NCBI RefSeq assembly: GCF_988243305.1
Contig: NZ_OZ547136.1
Direction: 5' to 3' (one strand)
Length of the DNA stretch: 64,000 nt
The notes beneath the pieces were generated by a model. It was not told where the DNA came from. It saw only the letters and a list, made by a program, of their open reading frames with translations, and did not search any database. The first letter of the stretch is position 1. Each line of letters begins with the position of its first letter. A program made the translations under genes and the position numbers. Positions 1 through 27,126 of this stretch are shown in pieces.

Positions 1-2603
<2,603 letters not shown>

Positions 2604-2629
<26 letters not shown>

Positions 2630-3149
2630 TCAGCAACCCCGGTATCAGTTCATCCAGCGCGGCTGCTTTGTTCATGGCTTTGATGATATCCCGTTTCAGG
2701 AAATCAACATGTCGGTTTTCCAGTTCCGGAAAACGCCGCTGCACCGACAGGGGGATCCCGTCGAGAATACTGGCAATTTCACCTGCGATCCGCGACAGCA
2801 CGAAAGTACAGAATGCGGTTTCCACCACTTCAGCGGAGTCTCTGGCATTCTTCAGTTCCTGTGCGTCGGCCTGCGCACGCGTAAGTCGATGGCGTTCGTA
2901 CTCAATAGTCCCTGGCTGGAGATCTGCCTCGCTGGCCTGCCGCAGTTCTTCAACCTCCCGGCGCAGCTTTTCGTTCTCAATTTCAGCATCCCTTTCGGCA
3001 TACCATTTTATAACGGCAGCAGAGTCATAAAGCACCTCATTACCCTTGCCACCGCCTCGCAGAACGGGCATTCCCTGTTCCTGCCAGTTCTGAATGGTAC
3101 GGATACTCGCACCGAAAATGTCAGCCAGCTGCTTTTTGTTGACTTCCAT
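2604..3149 (-). CDS. nu1: Terminase small subunit Nu1
   Basis: 181-aa ORF MEVNKKQLADIFGASIRTIQNWQEQGMPVLRGGGKGNEVLYD..., matches lambda Nu1; overlaps start of A as in lambda. Confidence 0.95.
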
Positions 3150-3326
3150 TGTTCATTCCACGGACAAAAACAGAGAAAGGAAACGACAGAGGCCAAAAAG
3201 CTCGCTTTCAGCACCTGTCGTTTCCTTTCTTTTCAGGTGGTGTTTTAAATAAAAACATTAAGTTACGGCGAAGAAGAACGGAAACGCCTTAAACCGGAAA
3301 ATTTTCATAAATAGCGAAAACCCGCG

Positions 3327-3338
3327 AGGTCGCCGCCC
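3327..3338. other. cos: cosN cohesive-end site within cos region (~3150-3420)
   Basis: Plus strand reads aggtcgccgccc, the reverse complement of the lambda 12-nt cohesive end GGGCGGCGACCT, flanked by lambda-like left-end and right-end sequence. Confidence 0.85.
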
Positions 3339-3537
3339 CGTAACCTGTCGGATCGCCGGAAAGGACCCGCAAAATGATAATAATTATCATCTACATGTCA
3401 CAACGTGCATCTACGCCATCAAACCACGTCAAATAATCAATTATGACGCAGGTATCGTATTAATTGATCTGCATCAACTTAACGTAAAAACAACTTCAGA
3501 CAATACAAATCAGTGACACTGAATACAGGGCAACCTC

Positions 3538-3732
3538 ATGTCAACGAAGAACAGAACCCGCAGAACAACAACCCGCAACATCCGCTTTCCTAACCCAATG
3601 ATTGAACAAATTAACATCGCTCTTGATCAAAAAGGGTCTGGGAATTTCTCAGCCTGGGTCATTGAAGCCTGCCGTCGGAGACTAACGTCAGAAAAGAGAG
3701 CATATACATCAATCCAAAGTGATGATGAATAA
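3538..3732 (+). CDS. Small basic protein of unknown function (recalled as DUF3950/YlcI-like)
   Basis: 64-aa ORF MSTKNRTRRTTTRNIRFPNPMIEQINIALDQKGSGNF...; family assignment from memory only. Confidence 0.5.
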   Translation: MSTKNRTRRTTTRNIRFPNPMIEQINIALDQKGSGNFSAWVIEACRRRLTSEKRAYTSIQSDDE

Positions 3733-4094
3733 ACATCCCGGTTTCTTCCACCATCGCACCGGAAAAGCAACTATGAGGGTAACCCTGCGTCTGTCAGCAC
3801 AGTAAAACCCGGTGTGCATCGTTTTTGATTATTCCCGCACACTCACGCAGAAGGAATTCCCCGTCGGGCTACGGTCATGGTTAATGCGGGAATACGGCGA
3901 CGATACAGCGCAGCTAAAAGGGTAATGGACAGAAAGAGCGGTTTATTTCATTCCACAGGATTCTGAGTGTCCCCAACTTCCTCCAATAGTCTGAGCGTAC
4001 ACCTATATAGTTTTAATTTTCATCAATCCATTTAACTATCGTTTAATTGTTGTCACATAGGATTCCGCCGTTTTTAACAATGCAGGATAATAAG

Positions 4095-4388
4095 ATGAAA
4101 AAAATGTTGTTTTCTGCCGCTCTGGCAATGCTTATTACAGGATGTGCTCAACAGACGTTTACTGTTGGAAACAAACCGACAGCAGTAACACCAAAGGAAA
4201 CCATCACCCATCACTTCTTCGTTTCGGGAATTGGACAGGAGAAAACTGTTGATGCAGCCAAAATTTGTGGCGGCGCAGAAAATGTTGTTAAAACAGAAAC
4301 CCAGCAAACATTCGTAAATGGATTGCTCGGTTTTATTACTTTAGGCATTTATACTCCGCTGGAAGCGCGTGTGTATTGCTCACAATAA
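4095..4388 (+). CDS. bor: Bor lipoprotein (serum-resistance lipoprotein of lambdoid phages)
   Basis: 97-aa product from internal ATG with SD aggataataag: MKKMLFSAALAMLITGCAQQTFTV..., lipobox LITGC; matches lambda Bor. Confidence 0.9.
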   Translation: MKKMLFSAALAMLITGCAQQTFTVGNKPTAVTPKETITHHFFVSGIGQEKTVDAAKICGGAENVVKTETQQTFVNGLLGFITLGIYTPLEARVYCSQ

Positions 4389-5841: not shown

Positions 5842-6237
5842 CTAACCTCGCATGTCAAAGCCAGATTTCTGAAAATCTCTGTAGACTTCCGGATTGTTGA
5901 AGGCCGGAAATTTGGCTTTATGAGCTGCGGACTTTATCGCTTCGCAATAGGCTTTATCACCGTTACTGGTAGATATTTTTAACGCCGTGCCATCCTGAGA
6001 GAATTCCATATGCAACCTGCATTTTTTCCCTTTCCAGTTATGCGGCTCATCAAGTTTGGCATTAATTGCAGCTCTGATTCCCCGCGCTTGCGCCCCCCAT
6101 TCATCCTGATCATCCCAGCGTCCTGAACTGCAACTACCTGTAGCAGTAGTTTTGTGGCAATCTGAAGGGTGTAAAGGTGTGCATCCCGCAACAAAACCGA
6201 CCCAAAAAGTCAACATAACGATTTTCTTTAATCCCAC
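5842..6237 (-). CDS. Lipoprotein with TolA C-terminal (domain III)-like fold, diverged copy
   Basis: 131-aa ORF with lipobox FVAGC; C-terminal ...KGKKCRLHMEFSQDGTALKISTSNGDKAYCEAIKSAAHKAKFPAFNNPEVYRDFQKSGFDMRG aligns with the TolA C-terminal domain; non-ATG start with strong SD (gaggag). Confidence 0.65.
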   Translation of the reverse strand: MGLKKIVMLTFWVGFVAGCTPLHPSDCHKTTATGSCSSGRWDDQDEWGAQARGIRAAINAKLDEPHNWKGKKCRLHMEFSQDGTALKISTSNGDKAYCEAIKSAAHKAKFPAFNNPEVYRDFQKSGFDMRG

Positions 6238-6387
6238 TTCTTGCTCCTCAATCCATTAAAATCTCAGCAATAGTAGTTGTTACGTCCGCCACTGGCTCAG
6301 AGCTGACTATCCGCTAAATTTAGCTCAGTGCCGTAGCTGTGTCAGAACAAACCTAAGCCGAAACCGTTTATTACAAAACAATAAATA

Positions 6388-6816
6388 TCAGGGTTTAAAA
6401 TCCAGCACCCCATTTTGAAATACTTTATATACTTCCGGCGAAGGGGGGGCAGGTATATCAGCATTCTTTATCGCATTCATCGCTTCACGACATAAATCGA
6501 GGTCTCCACTTTCTCTTTTAACCTCCAGTAGAAGGCCATTCGGGGCCATATGCATTCTCAGTGTACACTCTTTTCCTGAATACTTACTCGCATCCCCGAA
6601 CTGTTTTTCGATGGCGCTCTTGATTTGATGGGCATACAGACGGATATTCTCACTAACATCAGAAGTACGTTCAGATGAACTCACATACTGTGTCTCTATT
6701 GCTTTATCGGAGTAATATGATGTACGGTCATGATAATTTGTCGATACAGCATCAGTGCACCCGATAATAATCCCACTAATAATCAACGTAAGAATTGATG
6801 CGCTACGAAAACCCAT
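6388..6816 (-). CDS. Lipoprotein with TolA C-terminal (domain III)-like domain
   Basis: 142-aa ORF with lipobox IIGC; C-terminal YAHQIKSAIEKQFGDASKYSGKECTLRMHMAPNGLLLEVKRESGDLDLCREAMNAIKNADIPAPPSPEVYKVFQNGVLDFKP closely parallels E. coli TolA C-terminus (recalled ...YAGQIKSAIESKFYDASSYAGKTCTLRIKLAPDGMLLDIKPEGGDPALCQAALAAAKLAKIPKPPSQAVYEVFKNAPLDFKP); SD gtgaggaaaa. Confidence 0.75.
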   Translation of the reverse strand: MGFRSASILTLIISGIIIGCTDAVSTNYHDRTSYYSDKAIETQYVSSSERTSDVSENIRLYAHQIKSAIEKQFGDASKYSGKECTLRMHMAPNGLLLEVKRESGDLDLCREAMNAIKNADIPAPPSPEVYKVFQNGVLDFKP

Positions 6817-7813: not shown

Positions 7814-7890
7814 TGGCGCGCTGTACTGGATTCGAACCAGTAACCGATTGCTTAGAAGGCAATTGCTCTGTCCGGCTGAGCTAACAACGC
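7814..7890 (-). tRNA. tRNA-Arg (anticodon UCU)
   Basis: Reverse complement gcgttgttagctcagccggacagagcaattgccttctaagcaatcggttactggttcgaatccagtacagcgcgcca folds as cloverleaf: 7-bp acceptor stem, anticodon loop cttctaa, T-loop ttcgaat, CCA end. Confidence 0.9.
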
Positions 7891-7994
7891 TGAATACCGA
7901 TAATGGACCGCTATCGGGGACCCGCCCCCCCCCGCACCAACAACCCTGTTATCGTGTCGTCTGCTCTTCCTGATAAGCTCATGGCGGTTTGTGA

Positions 7995-8070
7995 TGGTGG
8001 CCCTTGCTGGATTTGAACCAGCGACCTGGCGATTATGAGTCGCTCGCTCTCACCACTGAGCTAAAGGGCC
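7995..8070 (-). tRNA. tRNA with CAU anticodon (Ile2/lysidine type or Met), resembling phage ileZ
   Basis: Reverse complement ggccctttagctcagtggtgagagcgagcgactcataatcgccaggtcgctggttcaaatccagcaagggccacca; perfect 7-bp acceptor stem, anticodon loop ctcataa, CCA end. Confidence 0.9.
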
Positions 8071-10748: not shown

Positions 10749-10915
10749 CGGTTGTCTCTGCTGGCGCAGCAGGTGCCAGTTGTTCAGGCTGGCGTGCGAA
10801 TTGTAAACCAGAATGCCAGGAAAAAACAAAACCCGCCGAAGCGGGTTACGTGCGGGTGCGTTGAGGATGCCTGACACATCAGAGGTGGCGAGGGATTTCT
10901 CCCTCGCCGGGTCTC

Positions 10916-11071
10916 TTACTCCTCAGGTTCGTAAACTGTGAAGACAGCGACCTCCGTCTGGCCGGTTCGGATTCGTACCTCGCAGAGGTCTTTCCTCGTT
11001 ACCAGTGCCGTCACTATGACGGTTAAACAGATGACGATCAGGGCGATTAACATCGCCTTTTGCTGCTTCAT
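10916..11071 (-). CDS. hok: Hok/Gef family type I toxin (HokD/RelF-like)
   Basis: 51-aa product MKQQKAMLIALIVICLTVIVTALVTRKDLCEVRIRTGQTEVAVFTVYEPEE; single TM helix and conserved Cys; track ORF carries an in-frame 19-codon upstream extension. Confidence 0.9.
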   Translation of the reverse strand: MKQQKAMLIALIVICLTVIVTALVTRKDLCEVRIRTGQTEVAVFTVYEPEE

Positions 11072-11791
11072 AGCCTGCTTCTCCTTGCCTTTCGGCACGT
11101 AAGAGGCTAACCTAGATTTGCCGTTCATAGATTGAGCCTCAGATTAATGTTAAGCGTCTTGCAGGACGCGTAATGTTAACTGGGGCTTTTCTCTATCTGC
11201 CTTTGGTGTTCATGCCTGAGGCAGATAGCCTCAAGCACCCGCAGCAATTCTACTTAACTCCCGTCACCTCGCCAATATAAAATCAATCAGAAAGGCGATC
11301 CATAAGAACAACAGCAAGACAATAAATTGCCATTACAGCCGCAATAGCTAGCGCACATTTGAGAACCAGCACGACAACCTCCTGTATTGGACGTACACCA
11401 GTTCTGATAAATATGAGGCTGTCTCATCATTGATTCAATATAACTATTGGGTATAGTTTCTGTGATTTTGTTCTGTAGAAATGGAACACAACAACCAGTC
11501 ACCACCAGCACTTCTTTAAATACGCCAAGTCCGACGCAAGCTAACCTTCTAGTCCGCTTTGAGCGAGGAGCGGACCAAACCCGGCCAACTGACTCTTAAA
11601 GGGGCCGCAGGAATTTTTCGTCTGAACTTTCGAAGCTCCTCTCCCTGAAGACAGAAAACTTCTGTGTGCTGTGGGAATATTGAATCTTTGCATTAGATAT
11701 AAATAATTTTATCCCGCCTGAAGTTTACATTATTTTATTTATCTGTTTTTCTAAATCAGACTGCACTCCTTACTTAAATCAGGAGCCAGTC

Positions 11792-12991
11792 ATGCCATTT
11801 GTTATTTATGTGTTTACTATCAGTGCCTTTGCGCTCGGACTCGCGGAATTTGTCCCCATTGGGCTGACAGACGTTATGGCTCAGGGGTTGTGTGTGGGTG
11901 TGGAGCAGACCGGGGCAGCGGTTACAACCTATGCACTGGGGGCAACGTTCGCGGCACCCGTACTGTCTGCGCTGACAGCAAGCTGGAGCCGGAAAAATGT
12001 AATGCTTACAACTGCCGTTGTGTTTACTGCCGGTAGTCTGGCGGCCGCGTTTGCAGCCACATTACCTCAGCTCCTGTTAGCGCGGTTCATTGCTGGTCTG
12101 GGACACGGCCTGTTTCTGGCTGCGGCATCCAGTACCGCAGCTCGTCTTGCTGGACCGGGTAAAGCAGGCAGAGCGGTGGCTGTGGTATTTGGTGGCTTTA
12201 CTCTGGCGATGGCAATCGGCGTACCGCTGAGTACATGGTTGGGGGGGGTGGTCTCATGGCGTCCAGTTCTCGGCGCTATTGCCGCTTTTGGCGCGTTCGG
12301 ATTCCTTGGACTGTTGTTCGGTATGAAAGATCCCGTACGCAGCGTGCCCGGTGAACATAGTGACTCAGCAATGCAGAATATCGGCATGCTGTTTAACCGT
12401 AAGTTGCTGGCCGGCGCGCTGGTTACGGTGCTGGCGTATGCAGGCTCGTTTACGGCTTACACCTTTATCGCACCTATTCTGACGCAGGTGACAGGGGTTA
12501 CCGGAGCAAAGGTGAGTCTGTTTATGCTGGTTTACGGTATTACAGCTGCGGTAGGTAATATTCTTGGTGGGAAACTTACCGACAGCATGGGGGTTAATCG
12601 TGCCAATATACTCATCATTAGCGGCATTGTTGTTGTCGTGCTTGGTATGTGGCTGCTGTCATCCTCACCGGTGAGCATGGGCATTCTGGTTGCGCTGCTG
12701 GGTATGGTGACATTTGCCGCAGTGCCGGCACTGCAGGCCCGTCTGATTGGTGTCGCTGAGCAACATGCTCCTCATGCGCATGGTGTTGCTGCCGGCCTGA
12801 ATATTGCGGGCTTCAACTCAGGTATAGCGCTGGGATCAGTACTGGGCAGCATTACTATAAGCCACGCCGGTATCGTGTATACCGGTATCAGCGGTGCGAT
12901 TGTTTCTCTGCTCGGCCTGCTGTTGCTGCTTGCACAAATCCGTCGCAGCCACAGTCGTAAATTTCAACAGGTTAAAATCGTAGGCCAGTAA
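11792..12991 (+). CDS. MFS transporter (12-TM)
   Basis: 399-aa highly hydrophobic ORF MPFVIYVFTISAFALGLAEFVPIGLTDVMAQ... with MFS-like repeat organisation. Confidence 0.7.
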   Translation: MPFVIYVFTISAFALGLAEFVPIGLTDVMAQGLCVGVEQTGAAVTTYALGATFAAPVLSALTASWSRKNVMLTTAVVFTAGSLAAAFAATLPQLLLARFIAGLGHGLFLAAASSTAARLAGPGKAGRAVAVVFGGFTLAMAIGVPLSTWLGGVVSWRPVLGAIAAFGAFGFLGLLFGMKDPVRSVPGEHSDSAMQNIGMLFNRKLLAGALVTVLAYAGSFTAYTFIAPILTQVTGVTGAKVSLFMLVYGITAAVGNILGGKLTDSMGVNRANILIISGIVVVVLGMWLLSSSPVSMGILVALLGMVTFAAVPALQARLIGVAEQHAPHAHGVAAGLNIAGFNSGIALGSVLGSITISHAGIVYTGISGAIVSLLGLLLLLAQIRRSHSRKFQQVKIVGQ

Positions 12992-13002
12992 AGGGAGGTT
13001 AT

Positions 13003-13695
13003 ATGCTTACCCGTGAAAATATGCTTAATGGCACATTTGTCAGGGTGCATGAAGCGCTGCTCCCGGCGAATATGCTCTGGGACGCTGAAAAAATACGCGC
13101 ATCAATGAACTCTACTCTGGAGGAGCGCCCGACGGGTGCTCCTTTCTGGATATTTGCCTACGGGTCATTGATGTGGAATCCCGTGCTGGCAATTGAAGAA
13201 ATGCAACGGGCCCGTCTGAAAGGATGGCAGCGCAGTTTCTGCATTCGTTTGATATCCGGACGAGCGACTCCTGATGTCCCCGGCAGGATGTTATCGCTCG
13301 ACGAAGGTGGAATTACCGAAGGTATTGCGTTCAGACTGCCGGAATCGACTCTTATTAATGAGCTGGAAATTGTCTGGACGCGCGAGATGATAACCGGTCT
13401 TTACCGTCCGGTCTGGGCAGACGTTTCGCTAGGAAACGGTGAGGAAATTCAGGCGCTGGCTTTCGTATCAGACAGACTGCATCCGCATTATGAACAGGAC
13501 AATCTTACAGCGACCGTAGCGTTGAGCATCGCATCTGCCCGTGGAGACATTGGCACGAATGCAGATTATGTATGGAAACTGCAGGCCACTCTGGGTGCGT
13601 TGGGAATACGGGATGATTACGTGAGTGAACTGGCCCTTGCTCTGCATGAGGCTCCCTGTAACGATAAACTTCATCAGCGAGGCGCTTCACTATGA
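13003..13695 (+). CDS. ChaC-like gamma-glutamylcyclotransferase family protein
   Basis: 230-aa ORF with FWIFAYGSLMWNP motif and overall similarity to ChaC. Confidence 0.7.
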   Translation: MLTRENMLNGTFVRVHEALLPANMLWDAEKIRASMNSTLEERPTGAPFWIFAYGSLMWNPVLAIEEMQRARLKGWQRSFCIRLISGRATPDVPGRMLSLDEGGITEGIAFRLPESTLINELEIVWTREMITGLYRPVWADVSLGNGEEIQALAFVSDRLHPHYEQDNLTATVALSIASARGDIGTNADYVWKLQATLGALGIRDDYVSELALALHEAPCNDKLHQRGASL

Positions 13696-14573
13696 GCCAT
13701 CTGAGCCATCTGCGAACGTTTCTTGAGGCCTATCGCTCTGGCTCCTTTTCAAAGGCGGCAGAACTACTGGGCATCACTCAGCCCGCGGCGTCACAGCATA
13801 TCCAGTCTCTTGAGACTCTGGTTGGTAAGCGTCTGTTTATCAGGCAGGCCAGAGGCGTGACGGCAACCGAAGCTGCGGATGAGCTTGCCCGCTCAGTTTC
13901 ACCCTTCATTGATGGTCTGGAAGAAAAGCTGTCCTCTTTCCGGTCAGGCTCTGTACACGGGGGAACAATTAATCTGGCAGGACCGCCAGATTTTATTCAT
14001 TCCCGGCTTGGGACAGTAATGGCTCCACTAATGAAGGAGGGGTATCGCCTACGCTTTCATACCGGCAATAAGCAACGTATTTATTCCCTTTTGCATGACG
14101 GGAGCGCCGATCTCGCTGTTACCGCATCTATGCCTGATGACCGTCTGTACGGCTATGCACATCTACTGACTGAACGCATGCTCCTTGTTCATGCTCCCGC
14201 CATGTCAGAGATCATCGGATCAGAACCTGGTGCTGAAACGCTTGCCTCATTACCGCTGATTGCTTATGACGAAGAGTTGCCACTGATTAGAGCGCTCTGG
14301 GCCTCCATGTTTCAGAGAGCCCCTGAGATGCAGGCTACATTCACCATTCCGGATTTACGTATTATCCGCGACTTGGTCTGTGACGGCCACGGGTGGACAG
14401 TGCTGCCGGATTATCACTGTGACAATGACCTGAAAAGTGGTCGCCTGATTTCAGTGACACCTGCAGACCTCGCTCCGACTAATCATCTTTATCTGGTCTG
14501 GAACAAAAGGACGGCTAATAACAGCCGAACCGCCTATGTTCGGGATTACATTCTTAAAACGTTTCCGCGTTGA
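13692..14573 (+). CDS. LysR-family transcriptional regulator
   Basis: 293-aa ORF MSHLSHLRTFLEAYRSGSFSKAAELLGITQPAASQHIQSLE... (LysR HTH), overlaps ChaC-like stop by 4 nt. Confidence 0.85.
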   Translation: MSHLSHLRTFLEAYRSGSFSKAAELLGITQPAASQHIQSLETLVGKRLFIRQARGVTATEAADELARSVSPFIDGLEEKLSSFRSGSVHGGTINLAGPPDFIHSRLGTVMAPLMKEGYRLRFHTGNKQRIYSLLHDGSADLAVTASMPDDRLYGYAHLLTERMLLVHAPAMSEIIGSEPGAETLASLPLIAYDEELPLIRALWASMFQRAPEMQATFTIPDLRIIRDLVCDGHGWTVLPDYHCDNDLKSGRLISVTPADLAPTNHLYLVWNKRTANNSRTAYVRDYILKTFPR

Positions 14574-14625
14574 TGTTTGAAACGGATGATTGGCGATGTG
14601 TATCATAAGTTACGTATGTCCGCTT

Positions 14626-14641
14626 CTGGCACAAAGCAGAC
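14626..14641 (+). repeat. 16-17 bp direct repeat, copy 1 (ctggcacaaagcagac), flanking the membrane-protein/BCCT module
   Basis: Near-identical copy cttggcacaaagcggac at 18298-18314. Confidence 0.5.
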
Positions 14642-14703
14642 GCCCACTCTCACGCGAATGCTTTGCCCTTGACTTGCCAACAACCGTATCGCTTGCTCCG
14701 CAA

Positions 14704-15996
14704 CTATGGTTTTTTATTAGAACCTTCGCCACTAAATAAATTATAATAAATTGATTTTATTAGATATCTGTCAGAATCTATATGGTCAGCACGAGTAGCA
14801 TGCTCTAATGTTTCAAATGCTAGGGTTTGTGCGGCTTCAGCAAAAATTCCAGGCCAACCCTTACTCAGCATCGACAGTCCTTTAAGTACCCTTATCTGAA
14901 TTTCCCTCATACTGGCACCATCGCGCGCAACAGGTGAGAAAAAGTCTTCAAGTAGATCGTTATTCTGAAGTGGTGCAACATGTACAGAAGGATATTTCAC
15001 TTCTATTTCATCAGATTTATTCTGCGCGTAAGCGGAAAGTATACGTACACCTCTGCCAATGACATCAATGGCGGTTCCAGGATCGTTCACTGCGGGGGAA
15101 AGGGCTCGGCAGGCTATTTCGGCCATGACGCTAAGACAAAATCGGGGGTCCTGAGCAAATGAACGTACATCCGAGACAATAATCGTCTCAAGTAAATCGG
15201 TGCTGATTGATGACTCCTGGCCCTGACTCAGGTACAAAACTGGCGTGGACGGATGTATGAAACTGCCCGGCTGCGCCACGAGGTATACATGACGGGGATC
15301 ATTGGTCAGCAGCTTGCTGAGTTTCACCATATCAACATATTCAACATAGCCAATCTTTTTCGGATAAACTGCAACCGTTCCTTTCGGCTGTTCATTGTTC
15401 TCAAGCCATGGATATCCGCCGAGACAGGGATTTCTTGCTCTCGCAATAAATGTTTCGATGGCCGCCTGTTCTACTTTTGCCGTTGTCTCACCAACCCTCC
15501 CCAGAGAGGTCAAATGCTGTATCCAGCGAAGCAATGTGATGAGGATTAAGGCAATGACAACCAGTGTTACAATGAATAAAATGACTCTCCCCCTTTCTCC
15601 ATAAGCTCCCATATTGAGGGCAATAATCCCTACCAGACTGAAGAGAAAAGAACCGATGAAGGTGGCCAGTACATTTTGTGTGGTGACGTCTTCAACAACT
15701 AAACGAGTAGCTCTGGGAGTCACATTAGTAGTGGCTGAACCGTAGGCTGTGACCATGATGCTCAGCGAAAATGTGGTCACTGCCAGCATACTCGATGCCA
15801 GTATGTTCAGAATGTTATCGACTGCTTCCGCACCAACCTTCACGGAAACCGACTCAGGTATCATTGATTTAAAAAGAATTGATAAAAGGGCCGTTATTAT
15901 TGCGACAATTGCGAATAACGTTGCCCTGAACCATAGTTTTTTAAATGTCTGCTTCAGCATCCATTTCCAGCGTGAAATCATTCTGCATTCCCTCAT
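14704..15996 (-). CDS. Polytopic inner-membrane protein, family uncertain (possibly DUF2254-like)
   Basis: 430-aa ORF with N-terminal TM helices and a soluble C-terminal region; start codon uncertain. Confidence 0.5.
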   Translation of the reverse strand: MRECRMISRWKWMLKQTFKKLWFRATLFAIVAIITALLSILFKSMIPESVSVKVGAEAVDNILNILASSMLAVTTFSLSIMVTAYGSATTNVTPRATRLVVEDVTTQNVLATFIGSFLFSLVGIIALNMGAYGERGRVILFIVTLVVIALILITLLRWIQHLTSLGRVGETTAKVEQAAIETFIARARNPCLGGYPWLENNEQPKGTVAVYPKKIGYVEYVDMVKLSKLLTNDPRHVYLVAQPGSFIHPSTPVLYLSQGQESSISTDLLETIIVSDVRSFAQDPRFCLSVMAEIACRALSPAVNDPGTAIDVIGRGVRILSAYAQNKSDEIEVKYPSVHVAPLQNNDLLEDFFSPVARDGASMREIQIRVLKGLSMLSKGWPGIFAEAAQTLAFETLEHATRADHIDSDRYLIKSIYYNLFSGEGSNKKP

Positions 15997-16044
15997 ATTG
16001 CAGCCGGGATAAATAAATGCCGCCTCTGTGGCGGCATGTTGCTG

Positions 16045-18048
16045 TTAACGAACCAGATGCAGGAAGTGCAGGTGTTTTTCGTACTGGTCCAGTATGTCAT
16101 TAATCAGCTGTTCCTGATTCCAGCCCATTACATCATAATTTTGGCCGCCCTCTTTGAGATAGACTTCAGCGCGATAATATCGATGTTGTTCACTCTGCTG
16201 CTCATCATTATCCAGCGCAGCGAGCGCGAAGGTCGGTGAGTTATACCCGCGAAGCCTCACTTCATATATATAATTCAGCTCGTTGCCCAAATCGACTTCA
16301 AGGCGAATACGATCCTCGGCGGCGTCACTGATGTGGCTTATCGTTCCCTGCTTGTTAAGTTCCTCCTGAACCAGCGTCATGGCGGGTTGGATAATGTCGT
16401 CCATAAAACGTTTCACAAGAGAGCGCTTCGGCAAATACGCGATATTGCGTAACCTTCTCTGCCAGGGAATTGGGTTACGTGCAGCCGTAGGAGCAATAGT
16501 CGCCATGCTAAGGCTTTCACGCTTGGTCAAATCCCGACGCAGGGCTTTTAACAGTCCGTATATGGATATTAATAAGATAACTGAGAAGGGCAATGCACTC
16601 GCTATCGTTACGGTTTGCAACGCACTCAGCCCCCCTGCGATCAGCAGGGCAATAGCAACAACGCCCATGAGCGATGCCCAGAAAATTCGCTGCCAGACGG
16701 GCGTGTTTGCCACCCCACCTGATGCCAGAGTATCCACAACCATTGCCCCCGAATCAGCAGACGTTACAAAGAAGACGATGACCATCGCCATTGCAATGAA
16801 TGACAGCACGGAAGAGAACGGGAAATGCTCCAGGAAATTAAACAGGGCAAGCGCAACATCCTGCTGAACGGTATTGGCGAGGTCAGTGGCGCCCTGGTTC
16901 ATGATGAGATAGATGGCGCTGTTTCCAAACACCGTCATCCACATGAGCGTAAAGCCGGCGGGAACAAACAACACGCCAGTCACGAACTCACGAATTGTCC
17001 TGCCGCGGGAAACGCGTGCAATGAACATACCTACAAACGGCGACCATGAAAGCCACCATCCCCAGTATAATAATGTCCAGCCCCCCAGCCAGTTGCTCGA
17101 CTTGGGTTCATACGCGTAAAGGTTGAACGTTTTACTCACCAGTTCCGACAGATAACCACCCGTATTTTCCACAAATGACTTCAGCAGAAGCACAGTGGGA
17201 CCCAGGCACAAGACCAGCGCCAGGAGCAACACCGCCAGGCCCAGATTAAGCTCAGACAGGATGCGTATTCCCTTGTCCAGGCCGGACACCACCGAAATCG
17301 TCGCTAACCCCGTGATGACCACGATCAAAATGACCTGTACCGTTTCATTGATGGGCACGCCGAAAAGATGGTTCAAACCGGCATTCACCTGCAATACACC
17401 GTAACCCAGTGATGTTGCAACGCCAAAGACAGTGCCTATCACGGCGAAGATATCAACCGCGTGGCCTATAGGCCCGTAAATGCGATCGCCGATAATGGGA
17501 TAGAGCGCAGAACGCAGCGTTAAAGGCAGACCGTGACGGTAACTGAAAAAGGCCAGAATCAGCGCCACGATGGCATAAATTGCCCATGCGTGCAGACCCC
17601 AGTGGAAGAACGTCAGGCGCATGGCTTCCTTCGCTGCCGCAACGGTCTCTGGAGTGCCGACAGGTGGCGAAAGATAATGCATCACAGGTTCGGCAACGCC
17701 AAAGAACATCAGGCCGATCCCCATCCCTGCCGAAAAAAGCATCGCGAACCAGGAGTGGTAGCTGAAATCAGGCTGCGCATGGTCTGGGCCCAGCTTTATA
17801 TCACCGTAACGTGAGAGTCCAAGGAACGTGACGCTCAGTAAAATCAGGGCCACAGCAAGTATGTAGAACCAGCTGGCATTCGTGAAGATTTGTTGCTGAA
17901 GTAGTTTAAAATTTTTGTCGGCGACATCCGGGAATACGGCGGCAAAGGCGACAAGAAGGAAAATTAGCAAAGCAGATGTAAAGAATACCGCTTTGTTAAT
18001 CTGGCTTGTAGACTTCTTTGGGGTTGTATCATTTTCACTCATAATCAT
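16045..18048 (-). CDS. BCCT-family transporter (BetT-like choline/betaine transporter paralog)
   Basis: 667-aa ORF with BCCT hallmarks ...WTLLYWGWWLSWSPFVGMFIARVSRGRTIREF... and a BetT-like C-terminal cytoplasmic extension. Confidence 0.8.
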   Translation of the reverse strand: MIMSENDTTPKKSTSQINKAVFFTSALLIFLLVAFAAVFPDVADKNFKLLQQQIFTNASWFYILAVALILLSVTFLGLSRYGDIKLGPDHAQPDFSYHSWFAMLFSAGMGIGLMFFGVAEPVMHYLSPPVGTPETVAAAKEAMRLTFFHWGLHAWAIYAIVALILAFFSYRHGLPLTLRSALYPIIGDRIYGPIGHAVDIFAVIGTVFGVATSLGYGVLQVNAGLNHLFGVPINETVQVILIVVITGLATISVVSGLDKGIRILSELNLGLAVLLLALVLCLGPTVLLLKSFVENTGGYLSELVSKTFNLYAYEPKSSNWLGGWTLLYWGWWLSWSPFVGMFIARVSRGRTIREFVTGVLFVPAGFTLMWMTVFGNSAIYLIMNQGATDLANTVQQDVALALFNFLEHFPFSSVLSFIAMAMVIVFFVTSADSGAMVVDTLASGGVANTPVWQRIFWASLMGVVAIALLIAGGLSALQTVTIASALPFSVILLISIYGLLKALRRDLTKRESLSMATIAPTAARNPIPWQRRLRNIAYLPKRSLVKRFMDDIIQPAMTLVQEELNKQGTISHISDAAEDRIRLEVDLGNELNYIYEVRLRGYNSPTFALAALDNDEQQSEQHRYYRAEVYLKEGGQNYDVMGWNQEQLINDILDQYEKHLHFLHLVR

Positions 18049-18297
18049 TTATTCCATTAATTAAATCCGCACTGGATAGAAGGTACTACCTCTCACAGAG
18101 TAGCAAAGTTCAACTGGCTATGCGGGGTTAATCGGAATGCATGGTGGAATGAGTGCCGATACAAATCATCCTATATTCTAAGGAGTTTTAAGTTACTCAG
18201 CCTGCCAATTACTGGGGCATTTAATTTGTATGATCTGTATCAAAGCTGGGATATAAGTTAAGTGAAGTATATTAGGCACGAATTACCAGCGTCTGCT

Positions 18298-18314
18298 CTT
18301 GGCACAAAGCGGAC
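18298..18314 (+). repeat. 16-17 bp direct repeat, copy 2 (cttggcacaaagcggac)
   Basis: Matches 14626-14641. Confidence 0.5.
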
Positions 18315-18382
18315 AACCACGCTAGCTCTACCCTGTGCCACAAAATGTCAATTTGCATCTGAACTAATGCACTTTAATCTCG

Positions 18383-18805
18383 TCACTTCAATAAATACCG
18401 AACATCCCCCTGATAAAACGACAATATGCGCTGCATAACTTCGCTCTTCCGGCACTCGCGACAGATTATGTTTAGGCGACTGTCGTAGCGACGTATTTCT
18501 CCGTCAGGTAATGACCAGATAAGGTCCGGATCAACCACAACCGGTTTCTTCAGCTTTGCCCTCGATAATTTTTTGCGGGCATTTTGCCAGTCTTTACGAG
18601 CCTGTTCAGACGGGAATAACCCGTAGCCAGAATTGTATACATCGCCACTGGCAACCAGCTCTCTGGCCAGAACGCTCATCAGATATCTTGTTGCCCCAGT
18701 TTTAGCTTCCAGTTGTCGTAACGTCTCGCGCCCACTCTGGCGTACGAGTTCAAGAACCTGCCCTTTAATTTTTTCCCGCTCTTCTTGTGTAAAAACTTTT
18801 GCCAC
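18383..18805 (-). CDS. Hypothetical replication-module protein (lambda P position)
   Basis: 140-aa ORF MAKVFTQEEREKIKGQVLELVRQSGRETLRQLEAKTGATRYLM...; immediately downstream of the initiator gene. Confidence 0.4.
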   Translation of the reverse strand: MAKVFTQEEREKIKGQVLELVRQSGRETLRQLEAKTGATRYLMSVLARELVASGDVYNSGYGLFPSEQARKDWQNARKKLSRAKLKKPVVVDPDLIWSLPDGEIRRYDSRLNIICRECRKSEVMQRILSFYQGDVRYLLK

Positions 18806-18845: not shown

Positions 18846-19934
18846 TTACCCCCTGAAGCCCGGCGGAATTTCGTTATCCGGTTCAGAAATATGATTCACA
18901 CAACGCTGGTTGTTCGTGCCGCTTACCTGGAGCAACCAGGGGTTCTCAAAATTCCGGTCCGGTCCAAAAAACGTCGTCGCTCGCTGAACAAATTCCGTTC
19001 CCGTTTTCCCGGTAGCCGCCAAGTATCTTGCGTAACGCCTCACGCCATCCAGCATGGCCTCTGGTGGCACCCCCTCGCGTAATCTGGCCTTCCAGGCACT
19101 GAAAGCGGATTTCTTCGGGTTTGCCCCAGCACGCAACGGGTACTCCCGCCAGACCTGTTCGAACACATCCGGATAATCCACTCGTCCCACAGACTGCCCG
19201 GTGTTTTCCGGGACTACCCGATCGGCTTCCCGCTGAATGGCGGAATCGGCTTCAGGCTGCTGCAGTTGGTGTGATTGCTCCGCCCTTGCGGTCATCACCT
19301 GCTGCACAGCGCCCGAATCGGCTTTCAGCGCATACGCTGAATCGGCTTCCGGTGTCGTGCCTGCTGGCTGACCAAGATTGACGGTCTGAACATCCCCTGC
19401 CTGGTTCGTGGCGTTTTTTACGCCATGGACCATAGTGTTTTGATCTTCTTGATCTGTATCTTTATCTGTATCTTTATCTGTATCTTTATCTGTCGTGACT
19501 CGTCGTGACATGTGCGTGACATTTCGTGACGCGCCGTGACAATCGCCATTTTGTTCCCGCTTTCTTTCCCTCTCTCGCTGCGCCCTCTTGCGCTCTGCAG
19601 GAGATTTTGCGGTTTGCGAAATATTGCCGTTGTCCTCTTTAAGCACCTGGCGTTTTTCCCATCCAGTGATTAAATCACCATCAAGTACCCGCCCCTGCAT
19701 CGTCTGCAAAATTGAATCAATTACCTCTTCTGTCACGTCGAGCGCACTTGCCAAATCTTCTGTCGTGACATCAATGTGACCTCGCGTGACATTTCGTGAC
19801 GCGCTCACCAGGAGGTGGATATACACTGCCATCACTGTTGCAATTGGCTGCCCTGACACCCTGGCAATTGTTCGCCACTTAGGGTCATTTGGCATGTCAT
19901 GCCATAATCTGAGCCAGGCGTTAGCCATACTCAC
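18846..19934 (-). CDS. Replication initiator (O-like) containing the origin iterons
   Basis: 362-aa ORF; internal DKDT tandem repeat and two clusters of CGTGAC iterons inside the coding sequence, as in lambda O/ori. Confidence 0.6.
   Translation of the reverse strand: MSMANAWLRLWHDMPNDPKWRTIARVSGQPIATVMAVYIHLLVSASRNVTRGHIDVTTEDLASALDVTEEVIDSILQTMQGRVLDGDLITGWEKRQVLKEDNGNISQTAKSPAERKRAQRERERKREQNGDCHGASRNVTHMSRRVTTDKDTDKDTDKDTDQEDQNTMVHGVKNATNQAGDVQTVNLGQPAGTTPEADSAYALKADSGAVQQVMTARAEQSHQLQQPEADSAIQREADRVVPENTGQSVGRVDYPDVFEQVWREYPLRAGANPKKSAFSAWKARLREGVPPEAMLDGVRRYARYLAATGKTGTEFVQRATTFFGPDRNFENPWLLQVSGTNNQRCVNHISEPDNEIPPGFRG
19452..19540. repeat. Origin-like repeat cluster 1: ~3.5 tandem copies of a 12-bp unit (atctgtatcttt) followed by five CGTGAC iterons at 10-11 bp spacing
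   Basis: Read directly at 19441-19540. Confidence 0.7.
19764..19800. repeat. Origin-like repeat cluster 2: four (C)GTGAC iterons; shares an exact 21-bp block (gcgtgacatttcgtgacgcgc) with cluster 1
   Basis: Read directly at 19761-19810; an inverted copy gtcacg lies at ~19732. Confidence 0.65.
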
Positions 19935-25811: not shown

Positions 25812-25845
25812 CTAAAAGCCACACTAACTAATGAGAGAAGTTGAA

Positions 25846-27126
25846 ATGAAATATCCGACAGGCGTGGAAAACCATGGAGGGAAATTACGTATCTGGTTTG
25901 TTTATAAAGGCGTAAGAGTCAGGGAAAATCTGGGGGTTCCTGACACAGCAAAAAACAGGCGCGTTGCAGGTGAACTACGCGCCTCTGTTTGTTACGCAAT
26001 AAAAACTGGTGTTTTCGACTATGCAAAACAGTTTCCCTCCTCACGCAATCTGGAAAAATTTGGTGAGGCCCGACAAGATTTAACCATAAAAGAACTGGCT
26101 GAAAAATTTCTGGCACTGAAAGAAACTGAAGTCGCAAAAACATCACTCAACACATACCGTGCCGTCATCAAAAATATCCTGAGCATAATCGGTGAAAAAA
26201 ATCTTGCCTCATCGATTAATAAAGAAAAATTACTGGAGGTTCGTAAAGAGCTACTGACTGGATACCAGATCCCCAAAAGTAACTATATTGTTACACAACC
26301 AGGGAGATCGGCTGTAACTGTAAATAATTACATGACAAATCTTAACGCCGTGTTCCAGTTTGGTGTTGATAACGGTTACCTGGCAGATAACCCGTTTAAG
26401 GGGATCTCGCCATTAAAGGAATCAAGAACCATTCCGGATCCTCTTTCGCGGGAGGAATTCATCCGTCTTATCGATGAGTGCAGAAATCAGCAAGCCAAAA
26501 ATTTATGGTGTGTTTCTGTTTATACTGGCGTTCGCCCTGGTGAGCTGTGTGCACTTGGATGGGAGGACATAGATCTGAAAAATGGAACAATGATGATCAG
26601 GAGAAATTTAGCAAAAGACCGTTTCACGGTACCAAAAACACAGGCGGGAACCAATCGGGTCATTCATCTTATTAAGCCAGCAATCGACGCTCTCCGGAGT
26701 CAGATGACATTAACGAGACTGAGCAAAGAGCATATCATTGATGTTCACCTCAGAGAGTATGGCAGAACAGAAAAACATAAATGCACCTTTGTTTTTCAAC
26801 CTGAAGTGTCAGCGAGAGTAAAAAATTATGGTGACCATTTTACCGTTGACTCAATAAGGCAGATGTGGGACGCAGCGATAAAACGTGCCGGACTCCGCCA
26901 TCGAAAATCATATCAGTCGAGACATACTTATGCCTGCTGGTCGCTGACTGCTGGTGCTAACCCGGCATTTATAGCAAACCAGATGGGCCATGCAGATGCG
27001 CAAATGGTATTTCAGGTATACGGAAAATGGATGTCTGAAAACAATAATGCACAGGTAGCTTTGTTAAATACACAGTTAAGCGAGTTTGCCCCAACCATGC
27101 CCCATAACGAAGCAATGAAAAATTAA
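25846..27126 (+). CDS. Tyrosine integrase (lambda family, rac IntR-like)
   Basis: MKYPTGVENHGGKLRIWFVYKGVRVRENLGVPDTAKNRRVAGELRASVCYAIKTGVFDYAK...; catalytic region with ...HTYACWSLTAGANPAFIANQMGHAD...VYGKWM; track ORF starts 5 codons earlier. Confidence 0.9.
   Translation: MKYPTGVENHGGKLRIWFVYKGVRVRENLGVPDTAKNRRVAGELRASVCYAIKTGVFDYAKQFPSSRNLEKFGEARQDLTIKELAEKFLALKETEVAKTSLNTYRAVIKNILSIIGEKNLASSINKEKLLEVRKELLTGYQIPKSNYIVTQPGRSAVTVNNYMTNLNAVFQFGVDNGYLADNPFKGISPLKESRTIPDPLSREEFIRLIDECRNQQAKNLWCVSVYTGVRPGELCALGWEDIDLKNGTMMIRRNLAKDRFTVPKTQAGTNRVIHLIKPAIDALRSQMTLTRLSKEHIIDVHLREYGRTEKHKCTFVFQPEVSARVKNYGDHFTVDSIRQMWDAAIKRAGLRHRKSYQSRHTYACWSLTAGANPAFIANQMGHADAQMVFQVYGKWMSENNNAQVALLNTQLSEFAPTMPHNEAMKN

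Follow-up and report, generated by a model that had tools for sequence, protein, structure and literature searches.

The stretch of DNA analysed here, hereafter called the window, comprises 64,000 nucleotides (nt) of contig NZ_OZ547136.1 from NCBI RefSeq assembly GCF_988243305.1, and it holds a lambdoid prophage in which a block of five host-like genes lies between the toxin gene hokD and the phage replication module. The genes code for an MFS transporter, a ChaC-family gamma-glutamylcyclotransferase and a LysR-family regulator on the plus strand, followed by a DUF2254 membrane protein and a BCCT-family transporter on the minus strand. All five had been named in an earlier sequence-only reading of the window, and they were recovered here at the same coordinates and on the same strands (list of open reading frames (ORFs); Pfam, NCBIfam and PHROGs), all intact and non-phage; the RefSeq annotation of a 100% identical stretch concurs with this content. 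The claim that non-phage cargo sits inside the prophage between hok and the replication module is confirmed, with an extent of 11552-18314. As a copy of one palindrome stands at each junction, the layout is backbone, site S1, cassette A, site S2, cassette B, site S3 and backbone again:

11552-11575, minus strand: site S1, exact pattern match, TCGCTC centre (GTCCGCTCCTCGCTCAAAGCGGAC on the minus strand), 3' end towards the hok backbone
11576-14617, plus strand: cassette A, with the MFS, ChaC and LysR genes and a promoter-like region at 11680-11707
11792-12991, plus strand: MFS transporter, 12 transmembrane segments, drug/metabolite exporter-like
13003-13695, plus strand: ChaC-family gamma-glutamylcyclotransferase (Pfam PF04752, E=5.7e-35)
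13692-14573, plus strand: LysR-family regulator (NCBIfam LysR-type models; RefSeq annotation)
14618-14641, plus strand: site S2, exact pattern match, TGGCAC centre, junction of cassettes A and B
14642-18290, minus strand: cassette B, with the DUF2254 gene and the gene of a BetT-type BCCT transporter
14704-15981, minus strand: DUF2254 polytopic membrane protein (Pfam PF10011, E=1.9e-92; phrog_27913)
16045-18042, minus strand: predicted BCCT-family osmolyte transporter (NCBIfam BetT subfamily NF007399)
18291-18314, plus strand: site S3, exact pattern match, TGGCAC centre, 3' end towards the DUF977 backbone

The five-gene block is an ordinary kind of cargo, of the sort known as morons; the under-described part is the palindrome, which is widespread and resembles a recombination site. 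The sequence-only reading had noted a direct repeat of 16-17 bp around the membrane-protein/BCCT pair; the repeat is real, but it is longer than that and is no target duplication. In fact 14618-14650 and 18291-18323 are identical at 26 of 33 positions, and the core of the repeat is the 24-nt palindrome GTCYGCTnnTSGCnCAAAGCRGAC, of which a third copy stands inverted at the left edge of the block. Three exact matches to this degenerate pattern are found in the window, where 0.01 would be expected by chance. The sequence logo adds an AAY...ATT extension that brings the site to 30 nt, with arms of 9-12 nt around an asymmetric 6-nt centre, TGGCAC or TCGCTC, and the copies share 11-15 identical central bases. 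Since positions 4 and 21 vary independently and the predicted hairpins are weak (-3 to -7 kcal/mol by folding), the site reads as a candidate double-stranded protein-binding palindrome rather than a structural hairpin. Rfam holds no family for it, either in the window or in alphaproteobacterial loci, and a full-text literature search returned nothing relevant on the site sequence, on DUF2254 together with prophage, or on palindromes of lambdoid hotspots.

A cargo hotspot with exchangeable contents

The best explanation of the block, as the sequences compared here suggest, is that it forms the cargo of a hotspot between the ren-like DUF977 gene and hok in a single lambdoid prophage, and that this cargo consists of two independently mobile cassettes in tandem. 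It had been supposed that a lambdoid phage normally runs straight through here; instead, the interval is a standing cargo hotspot, and every relative examined had it filled. The hok and DUF977 flanks enclose at least eight different contents in related phages and prophages, as is expected of a moron hotspot: QueH; two hypothetical proteins; a hypothetical protein with an S-adenosylmethionine methyltransferase and a SMEK protein; DUF5677; relBE-ydfV-flxA-ydfW in the K-12-type Qin slot; and in the sequenced phages mEp460_ev081 and Tritos one hypothetical gene, between the same flanks and the same two site types. Homology of the backbone to prophages with other cargo stops at 11566-11575 and restarts at 18291-18296. 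A comparison of presence and absence across complete E. coli genomes found the five-gene block in 296 of 5,426 (~5%), and as only 41 of these 296 carriers match the window over the greater part of its first 25 kb, the block resides in prophages with differing late regions. A label of defence island for the hotspot was rejected, PADLOC giving weak matches only for the alternative cargos.

The same genomic slot is used by other early-right morons of lambdoid prophages, namely relBE-hokD in Qin and trkG in Rac. In Rac of K-12 (NC_000913, 1422752-1425239) trkG follows the DUF977-like gene ydaW, in a slot analogous to that of the present block; it codes for a potassium transporter, related to osmoregulation and long taken for foreign cargo. 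No copy of the palindrome occurs within 12 kb of trkG, whereas the cargo described here has sites at its borders and is shared with plasmids.

Both cassettes are found on other replicons. Cassette A lies on the K. pneumoniae IncF plasmid NZ_LR890357 with 92.3% identity over 11551-14642; the homology covers exactly what lies between the outer edges of S1 and S2, and the plasmid has nothing else in common with the prophage. A further Klebsiella plasmid has this pair of flanks and these site types too, but between them it holds a DUF4268 gene and not cassette A. Diverged versions of A on Klebsiella plasmids (~65% identity) keep the three-gene order, and versions at ~75% lack the cyclotransferase; among the 5,426 E. 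coli genomes A occurs in 310, nearly always at 99% identity or more. Cassette B is carried by the E. coli plasmid pCRST049_1, in a captured Qin fragment, with 99.8% identity over exactly 14616-18315. It is inserted there in ydfV, at a single TGGCAC site that is unoccupied in K-12-like Qin, and only the site itself is duplicated. The empty site in K-12-type Qin reads ...ttagcaat GGCTGCTCCTGGCACAAAGCGGAC agtgatcaccg...; in the occupied version the left arm of the empty site is joined to the cassette at one end, …AAAGCAGAC gcccactc…, and a cassette arm is joined to the right end of the site at the other, GTCTGCTCT TGGCACAAAGCGGAC agtgatcaccg. Position 21 of each junction copy follows the 3' flank while the left arm follows the 5' flank, and because the junction arms segregate in this way we place the crossover inside TGGCACAAAGC.

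Homology to the plasmid and chromosomal copies of B begins at 14616-14622, and IMG/VR prophages show B next to either of two other cassettes on its left. The suggestion that the DUF2254/BCCT pair was acquired separately is therefore supported, by these other left neighbours, by the plasmid copy at an otherwise empty site and by a chromosomal allele (93-94% DNA identity, ~1,550 records) in a region near fec that is rich in insertion sequences (IS). Moreover, in Serratia ureilytica (CP070508, 72315-86312) a BCCT-DUF2254 pair, with a BCCT protein 94% identical, is located in a P4-like island (primase, AlpA, integrase) beside two Usp genes; the palindrome is not there, and the same cargo pair has therefore been picked up by a mobile element of another kind.

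The sites obey rules of orientation. Each centre type is represented by one site at the borders of the hotspot, and the two sites face outward, so that S1 on the minus strand and S3 on the plus strand form inverted repeats of a common sequence flanking the block, as in the Z/fun slot of phage P2. Adjacent sites with the same centre are direct in a ratio of 15:1, and adjacent sites with different centres are outward-inverted in a ratio of 8:1; the rule holds in all hok/DUF977 hotspots examined, the sequenced phages included, as well as in the Klebsiella slot and in P2. The interval of exchange can be seen in 255 pairs of copies that agree in their 3' flank and differ in their 5' flank, where positions 4, 8 and 9 differ in 36-65% and positions 11, 14 and 21 in 0-4%; the former vary with the cargo side, and the latter stay with the backbone.

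The closest known counterpart is the Z/fun region of P2, for which site-specific recombination was inferred from inverted repeats flanking fun (Nilsson et al. 2004, as summarised in PMC8987985). Good copies of the present site occur in the G-FI (Z/fun) slot of P2-like prophages, and in P2 itself (NC_001895) two degenerate copies, 15335-15358 and 17432-17455, inverted and with 2-3 mismatches, flank fun(Z) and are the only inverted repeat that brackets it. Because degenerate copies of the site bracket fun(Z) and good ones sit in the G-FI slot, the block is best filed in the P2 Z/fun class of cassettes. In both systems a variable cargo slot bounded by inverted repeats lies between conserved phage genes, and the same cargo is met in bacterial replicons: for A this is a Klebsiella plasmid, and B resides on an E. 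coli plasmid as well as, beside a single site, in the chromosome. The present slot differs in belonging to a lambdoid phage, where it extends from a ren-like gene to hok, in holding two tandem cassettes with an internal third site, and in a cargo of transport and metabolism, that of P2 being phage exclusion. In P2-like phages a 40-nt imperfect palindrome, TGTCAGATTTGATAGC...GCTATGTAAATTGTCAG, is also observed directly 3' of the site, upstream of FI (locus L025, 3880-3920; P2 NC_001895, 17456-17495).

The site is not confined to these phages. At least 120 IMG/VR stretches contain it, and in these its 5' flank is highly variable and its 3' flank belongs to a few conserved backbone types, including the DUF977 side, the hok side and P2-like sequence upstream of FI. 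A taxonomic scan of one genome per species, in which ~1 match would be expected by chance by our own calculation, gave at least 120 matches listed, and among these the copies come from Enterobacterales, many Alphaproteobacteria, other Gammaproteobacteria, Nitrosomonadales and single metagenome-assembled genomes (MAGs) of other phyla; the site is kept almost base for base across phyla. One Hyphomicrobiales MAG has at least 20 copies, scattered among ordinary genes. In Alphaproteobacteria (loci L135-L152, L206 and L207, from Hyphomicrobiales and Hyphomicrobium MAGs) a second, related palindrome, aatGTCCGCTTTCGGGGGTAAAGCGGAcat, usually follows ~18 nt after the site. In three Klebsiella plasmids, with different downstream sequence, an IS110-family element ends at the outer edge of a TCGCTC-type site, and the palindrome may be a specific target of that element:

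L009, 6669-7975: IS110-family element, Klebsiella plasmid locus
L253, 2493-3802: IS110-family element, Klebsiella plasmid locus
L252, 2501-2714: IS110-family element, Klebsiella plasmid locus

How the cargo may move

Given these comparisons, the palindromic site is probably the point of exchange, the cargo moving by recombination inside it. Whole cargos are swapped between outward-facing pairs of sites with different centres, and B sits between two direct TGGCAC sites. An empty and an occupied site, the fixed interval of exchange and the rule of orientation are indirect evidence for site-specific movement. In this reading B would have entered as a circle with one site and A by a double exchange between a different-centre site pair, in a reaction that would be catalysed in trans by a site-specific recombinase. 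Were this so, a suggestion that has stood for twenty years since Nilsson et al. 2004 would become a concrete and testable mechanism for exchange in the cargo and defence slots of phages, for one short site bounds cargo in two unrelated families of temperate phage and in Klebsiella plasmids, with rules of orientation and centre that it obeys; the site is at any rate a simple sequence marker for locating such slots and their cargo in genomes.

Several points weigh against exchange by such a dedicated system. No recombinase gene lies in or beside cassettes A and B, and when the ORFs within 3 kb of the site at 120 diverse genome loci were clustered, no recombinase recurred among them. Short-homology recombination would likewise be possible over the 11-15 identical central bases, and the statistics on orientation and exchange come from few backbone families and from copies selected by pattern. 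In the chromosomal allele of B a single site survives, at the DUF2254 end, while IS600/IS3 cuts the other end, and the site is missing on both sides of the BCCT orthologues of Serratia ureilytica and K. aerogenes. The precise excision product, LysR/site/DUF977, a junction with A only, occurs in 0 of the 5,426 complete E. coli genomes; as E. coli moreover seldom has A without B, with 99% identity or more, the A-B arrangement may have formed once and spread with the prophage. Finally, that the repeats of Nilsson et al. 2004 are the present site is probable, though the equation is not proven.

The main rival of recombination at a dedicated site takes the palindrome for a REP-like repeated landmark, over whose 24-30 bp RecA-type, Red/RecT-type or illegitimate recombination exchanges the cargo with no dedicated recombinase. 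We hold it to be possible but rather doubtful. It agrees with the lack of a linked recombinase at the 120 loci, with the lack of excision products in E. coli and with the identity of the central bases between copies; the dispersal of the site among ordinary alphaproteobacterial genes, often in company with the second palindrome, is like that of repeat families, and the IS110-family element abuts the site as such elements do with REP-like targets. However, a symmetric short homology would not impose the rule of orientation, in either of its two ratios, each variable position goes clearly with one of the two flanks, and the conservation across phyla argues for sequence-specific recognition. Nor does the site look like a REP hairpin selected for structure, as positions 4 and 21 show no covariation and the hairpins are weak; compared with REP/RAYT systems it has no GTAG head, and within 3 kb no gene recurs at the 120 loci apart from LysR regulators, the sole recurring neighbours (11 loci). 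It is a good deal less probable that the palindrome is merely a feature of the phage backbone, such as a terminator or an operator, and that the cargo is exchanged by homologous recombination in the hok and DUF977 genes. Related phages do have long flanking homology in common, and in most prophages the site adjoins conserved backbone of few 3' flank types; yet the Klebsiella IncF plasmid shares cassette A alone, from site to site, B was inserted in ydfV with duplication of nothing but the site, the internal S2 separates the two cassettes, and the site has no T-tract and occurs on either strand relative to the neighbouring genes.

Hardly credible, finally, is a junction of two independently integrated elements or a delivery by IS or composite transposon, for which the host-like genes might speak, as might the IS elements that flank the chromosomal allele of B elsewhere. 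At the edges of the block (11100-11790 and 18050-18380) and at the A/B junction (14574-14703) there is no IS end, att-like repeat or target duplication, and no transposase ORF or IS homology, as a composite transposon would have, was found across 10900-18500. The two edge spacers, where an att site or integrase remnant would have betrayed a second element, contain no integrase remnant either; their ORFs have no PHROG match, and Rfam sees sok alone. With no integrase remnant, IS or att-like repeat in these spacers, a boundary between two elements is ruled out to the extent that sequence allows. The earlier statement that this is one prophage stands, the flanks being contiguous in sequenced phages, and the same flanks bracketing other cargo in related prophages and in mEp460_ev081 and Tritos; the one integrase lies at the end next to rspB.

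Recombination at the site, which we prefer, can be carried one step further, and this we do tentatively: the palindrome could be the core site of an integron-like cassette system with no linked integrase, which would act in trans across lambdoid and P2-like phages, plasmids and chromosomes of many phyla. The outward-facing pairs with different centres would then be exchange slots, that is, a natural form of recombinase-mediated cassette exchange, and direct pairs with the same centre would mark inserted circles; if it were true, the identity of the enzyme would explain how the cargo and defence hotspots of phages are refilled. Like integron cassettes, the present ones are promoter-poor gene units, each bounded by a recombination site and arrayed in one orientation, and they show the signature of insertion of a one-site circle; an enzyme acting in trans on dispersed sites would have its likeness in attC clusters without an integrase. 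In contrast, attC sites measure 57-141 bp and the present site 24-30 bp, without RYYYAAC/GTTRRRY boxes or extrahelical bases; exchange lies in the middle of the palindrome here and at the base of the stem in attC; integrons have no known counterpart to the outward-facing pairs with different centres; and no intI was found in the cassettes or near the sites, so that neither attC nor intI, by which an integron is recognised, is at hand. The XerC/D (pdif) modules of Acinetobacter plasmids are another system of short two-arm sites with a 6-nt centre, moved by a recombinase that is encoded elsewhere. They resemble the present cassettes as discrete gene modules bounded by sites made of arms and a 6-nt centre, but the arms of the present site are mutually palindromic, which suggests a single protein species. 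Identity with Xer/pdif sites, which measure 28 bp, was rejected by eye, the arms AATGTCYGCTT being unlike the dif arms, GGTGCGCATAA / TTATGTTAAAT.

Other candidates for the nature of the site were considered. A sigma-54 promoter, as TGGCAC-N5 might suggest, was rejected by eye, there being no GC at the -12 position. The half-site resembles the Tn3/gamma-delta resolvase consensus TGTCYNNTA, and the centre resembles the GTGCCAA spacer of the R64 shufflon; both resemblances serve as leads only. A weak copy of the palindrome with 3 mismatches, GTCCGCCACTGGCTCAGAGCTGAC, is seen at 6284-6307 on the plus strand, between the TolA-like genes 5842-6216 and 6388-6816 in the moron region from Q to lysis, perhaps the remains of a site that served a second cargo slot.

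Predicted function of the cargo

The functions of A and B are read here from family membership only. Cassette A is predicted to be a LysR-controlled unit that would couple a ChaC-type enzyme cleaving gamma-glutamyl (glutathione-like) peptides to an exporter-like MFS protein. The Pfam ChaC domain is present in the product of 13003-13695, its match spanning positions 2-171 of the 176 of the model, and the YGSL motif is found in the translation; the LysR gene starts with a 4-nt overlap of the end of the ChaC gene. The MFS protein has a Cmx/CmrA-type model as its top NCBIfam match (207 bits, under the cut-off), and it also matches the sugar-efflux, AraJ and NepI models (E 1e-31 to 1e-61), all under the cut-off.

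Cassette B would plausibly give lysogens a secondary uptake of a quaternary-ammonium osmolyte such as glycine betaine, proline betaine or choline. Its BCCT protein belongs at full length to the BetT subfamily (NF007399: 752 bits against a cut-off of 695, residues 10-667), and it is probably a member of the BetU group of BCCT transporters (Ly et al. 2004, cited in PMC13300293). BetU is a transporter of glycine betaine and proline betaine from uropathogenic E. coli. The databases name the protein BetT or BCCT only, the name BetU not being found in them, and no betAB genes adjoin the present gene. The BCCT gene is present in 1,958 of the 5,426 E. coli genomes, roughly a third, at a median of one place per genome, and is absent from K-12; the distribution of betU fits with this. 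Since most carriers hold the gene at one place, a prophage or a plasmid is predicted to be able to supply an osmolyte uptake system, and such import by a mobile cassette would bring strain variation in osmoregulation, with relevance for urinary and intestinal fitness. Compared with the chromosomal E. coli allele, the BCCT and DUF2254 proteins have 98.2% and 97.6% amino-acid identity; as these values exceed the 93-94% of the DNA, purifying selection on both genes is indicated. The synteny of DUF2254 and BCCT is seen in E. coli and in Serratia. Between the two genes, at 16017-16037, the minus strand has a GC-rich stem-loop followed by a T-rich tail, by which read-through into DUF2254 may be attenuated.

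A check of base composition gave a GC content of 0.48-0.52 throughout (0.52 and 0.48 in the cassettes, 0.51 and 0.48 in the flanks), by which the cargo is not distinguishable from the phage.

The host prophage

The features that frame the hotspot are as follows:

10916-11071, minus strand: hokD toxin gene (NCBIfam Hok family; RefSeq hokD), conserved left backbone of the hotspot
11066-11240, minus strand: sok/hok regulatory RNA region (Rfam RF01794, 111.7 bits against a gathering score of 59)
18383-18805, minus strand: DUF977/Ren-like exclusion protein (phrog_142, E=4.7e-45), conserved right backbone
18846-19934, minus strand: phage replication initiation protein (phrog_3729, E=2.8e-254)
25831-27126: integrase, the only intact one in the prophage, beside rspB

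According to the annotation of near-identical genomes, the genes run from head, tail and terminase through lysis, Q, RusA, a DUF968 HNH protein and hokD to the cargo, and beyond it through DUF977, the replication genes, the immunity region, dicB, exo, xis and int to the end of the prophage, which abuts rspB, the Qin site; the exonuclease gene is intact in the window, as is the integrase. The window is 100% identical to E. coli F9792 over 11000-18500 and 99.8% identical to strains such as AHS8C65RI over 1-25000; the 3.8 kb on the terminase side (1-3780) are missing from the otherwise matching F9792. About 250 bp between sok and S1, at 11300-11551, are kept in all related prophages, and no annotated gene, no PHROG match for their 74-aa ORF and no Rfam match were found in them. 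Just downstream of hokD, at 10826-10907 on the minus strand, there is a weak match to isrK, a small RNA of prophages (27.8 bits against a gathering score of 50, E=0.007). Judging from how a 99.8% identical genome is annotated, the prophage also carries the serum-resistance gene iss and genes for tRNA-Arg and tRNA-Ile between Q and lysis, the regions concerned being 4095-4388 and 7814-8070.

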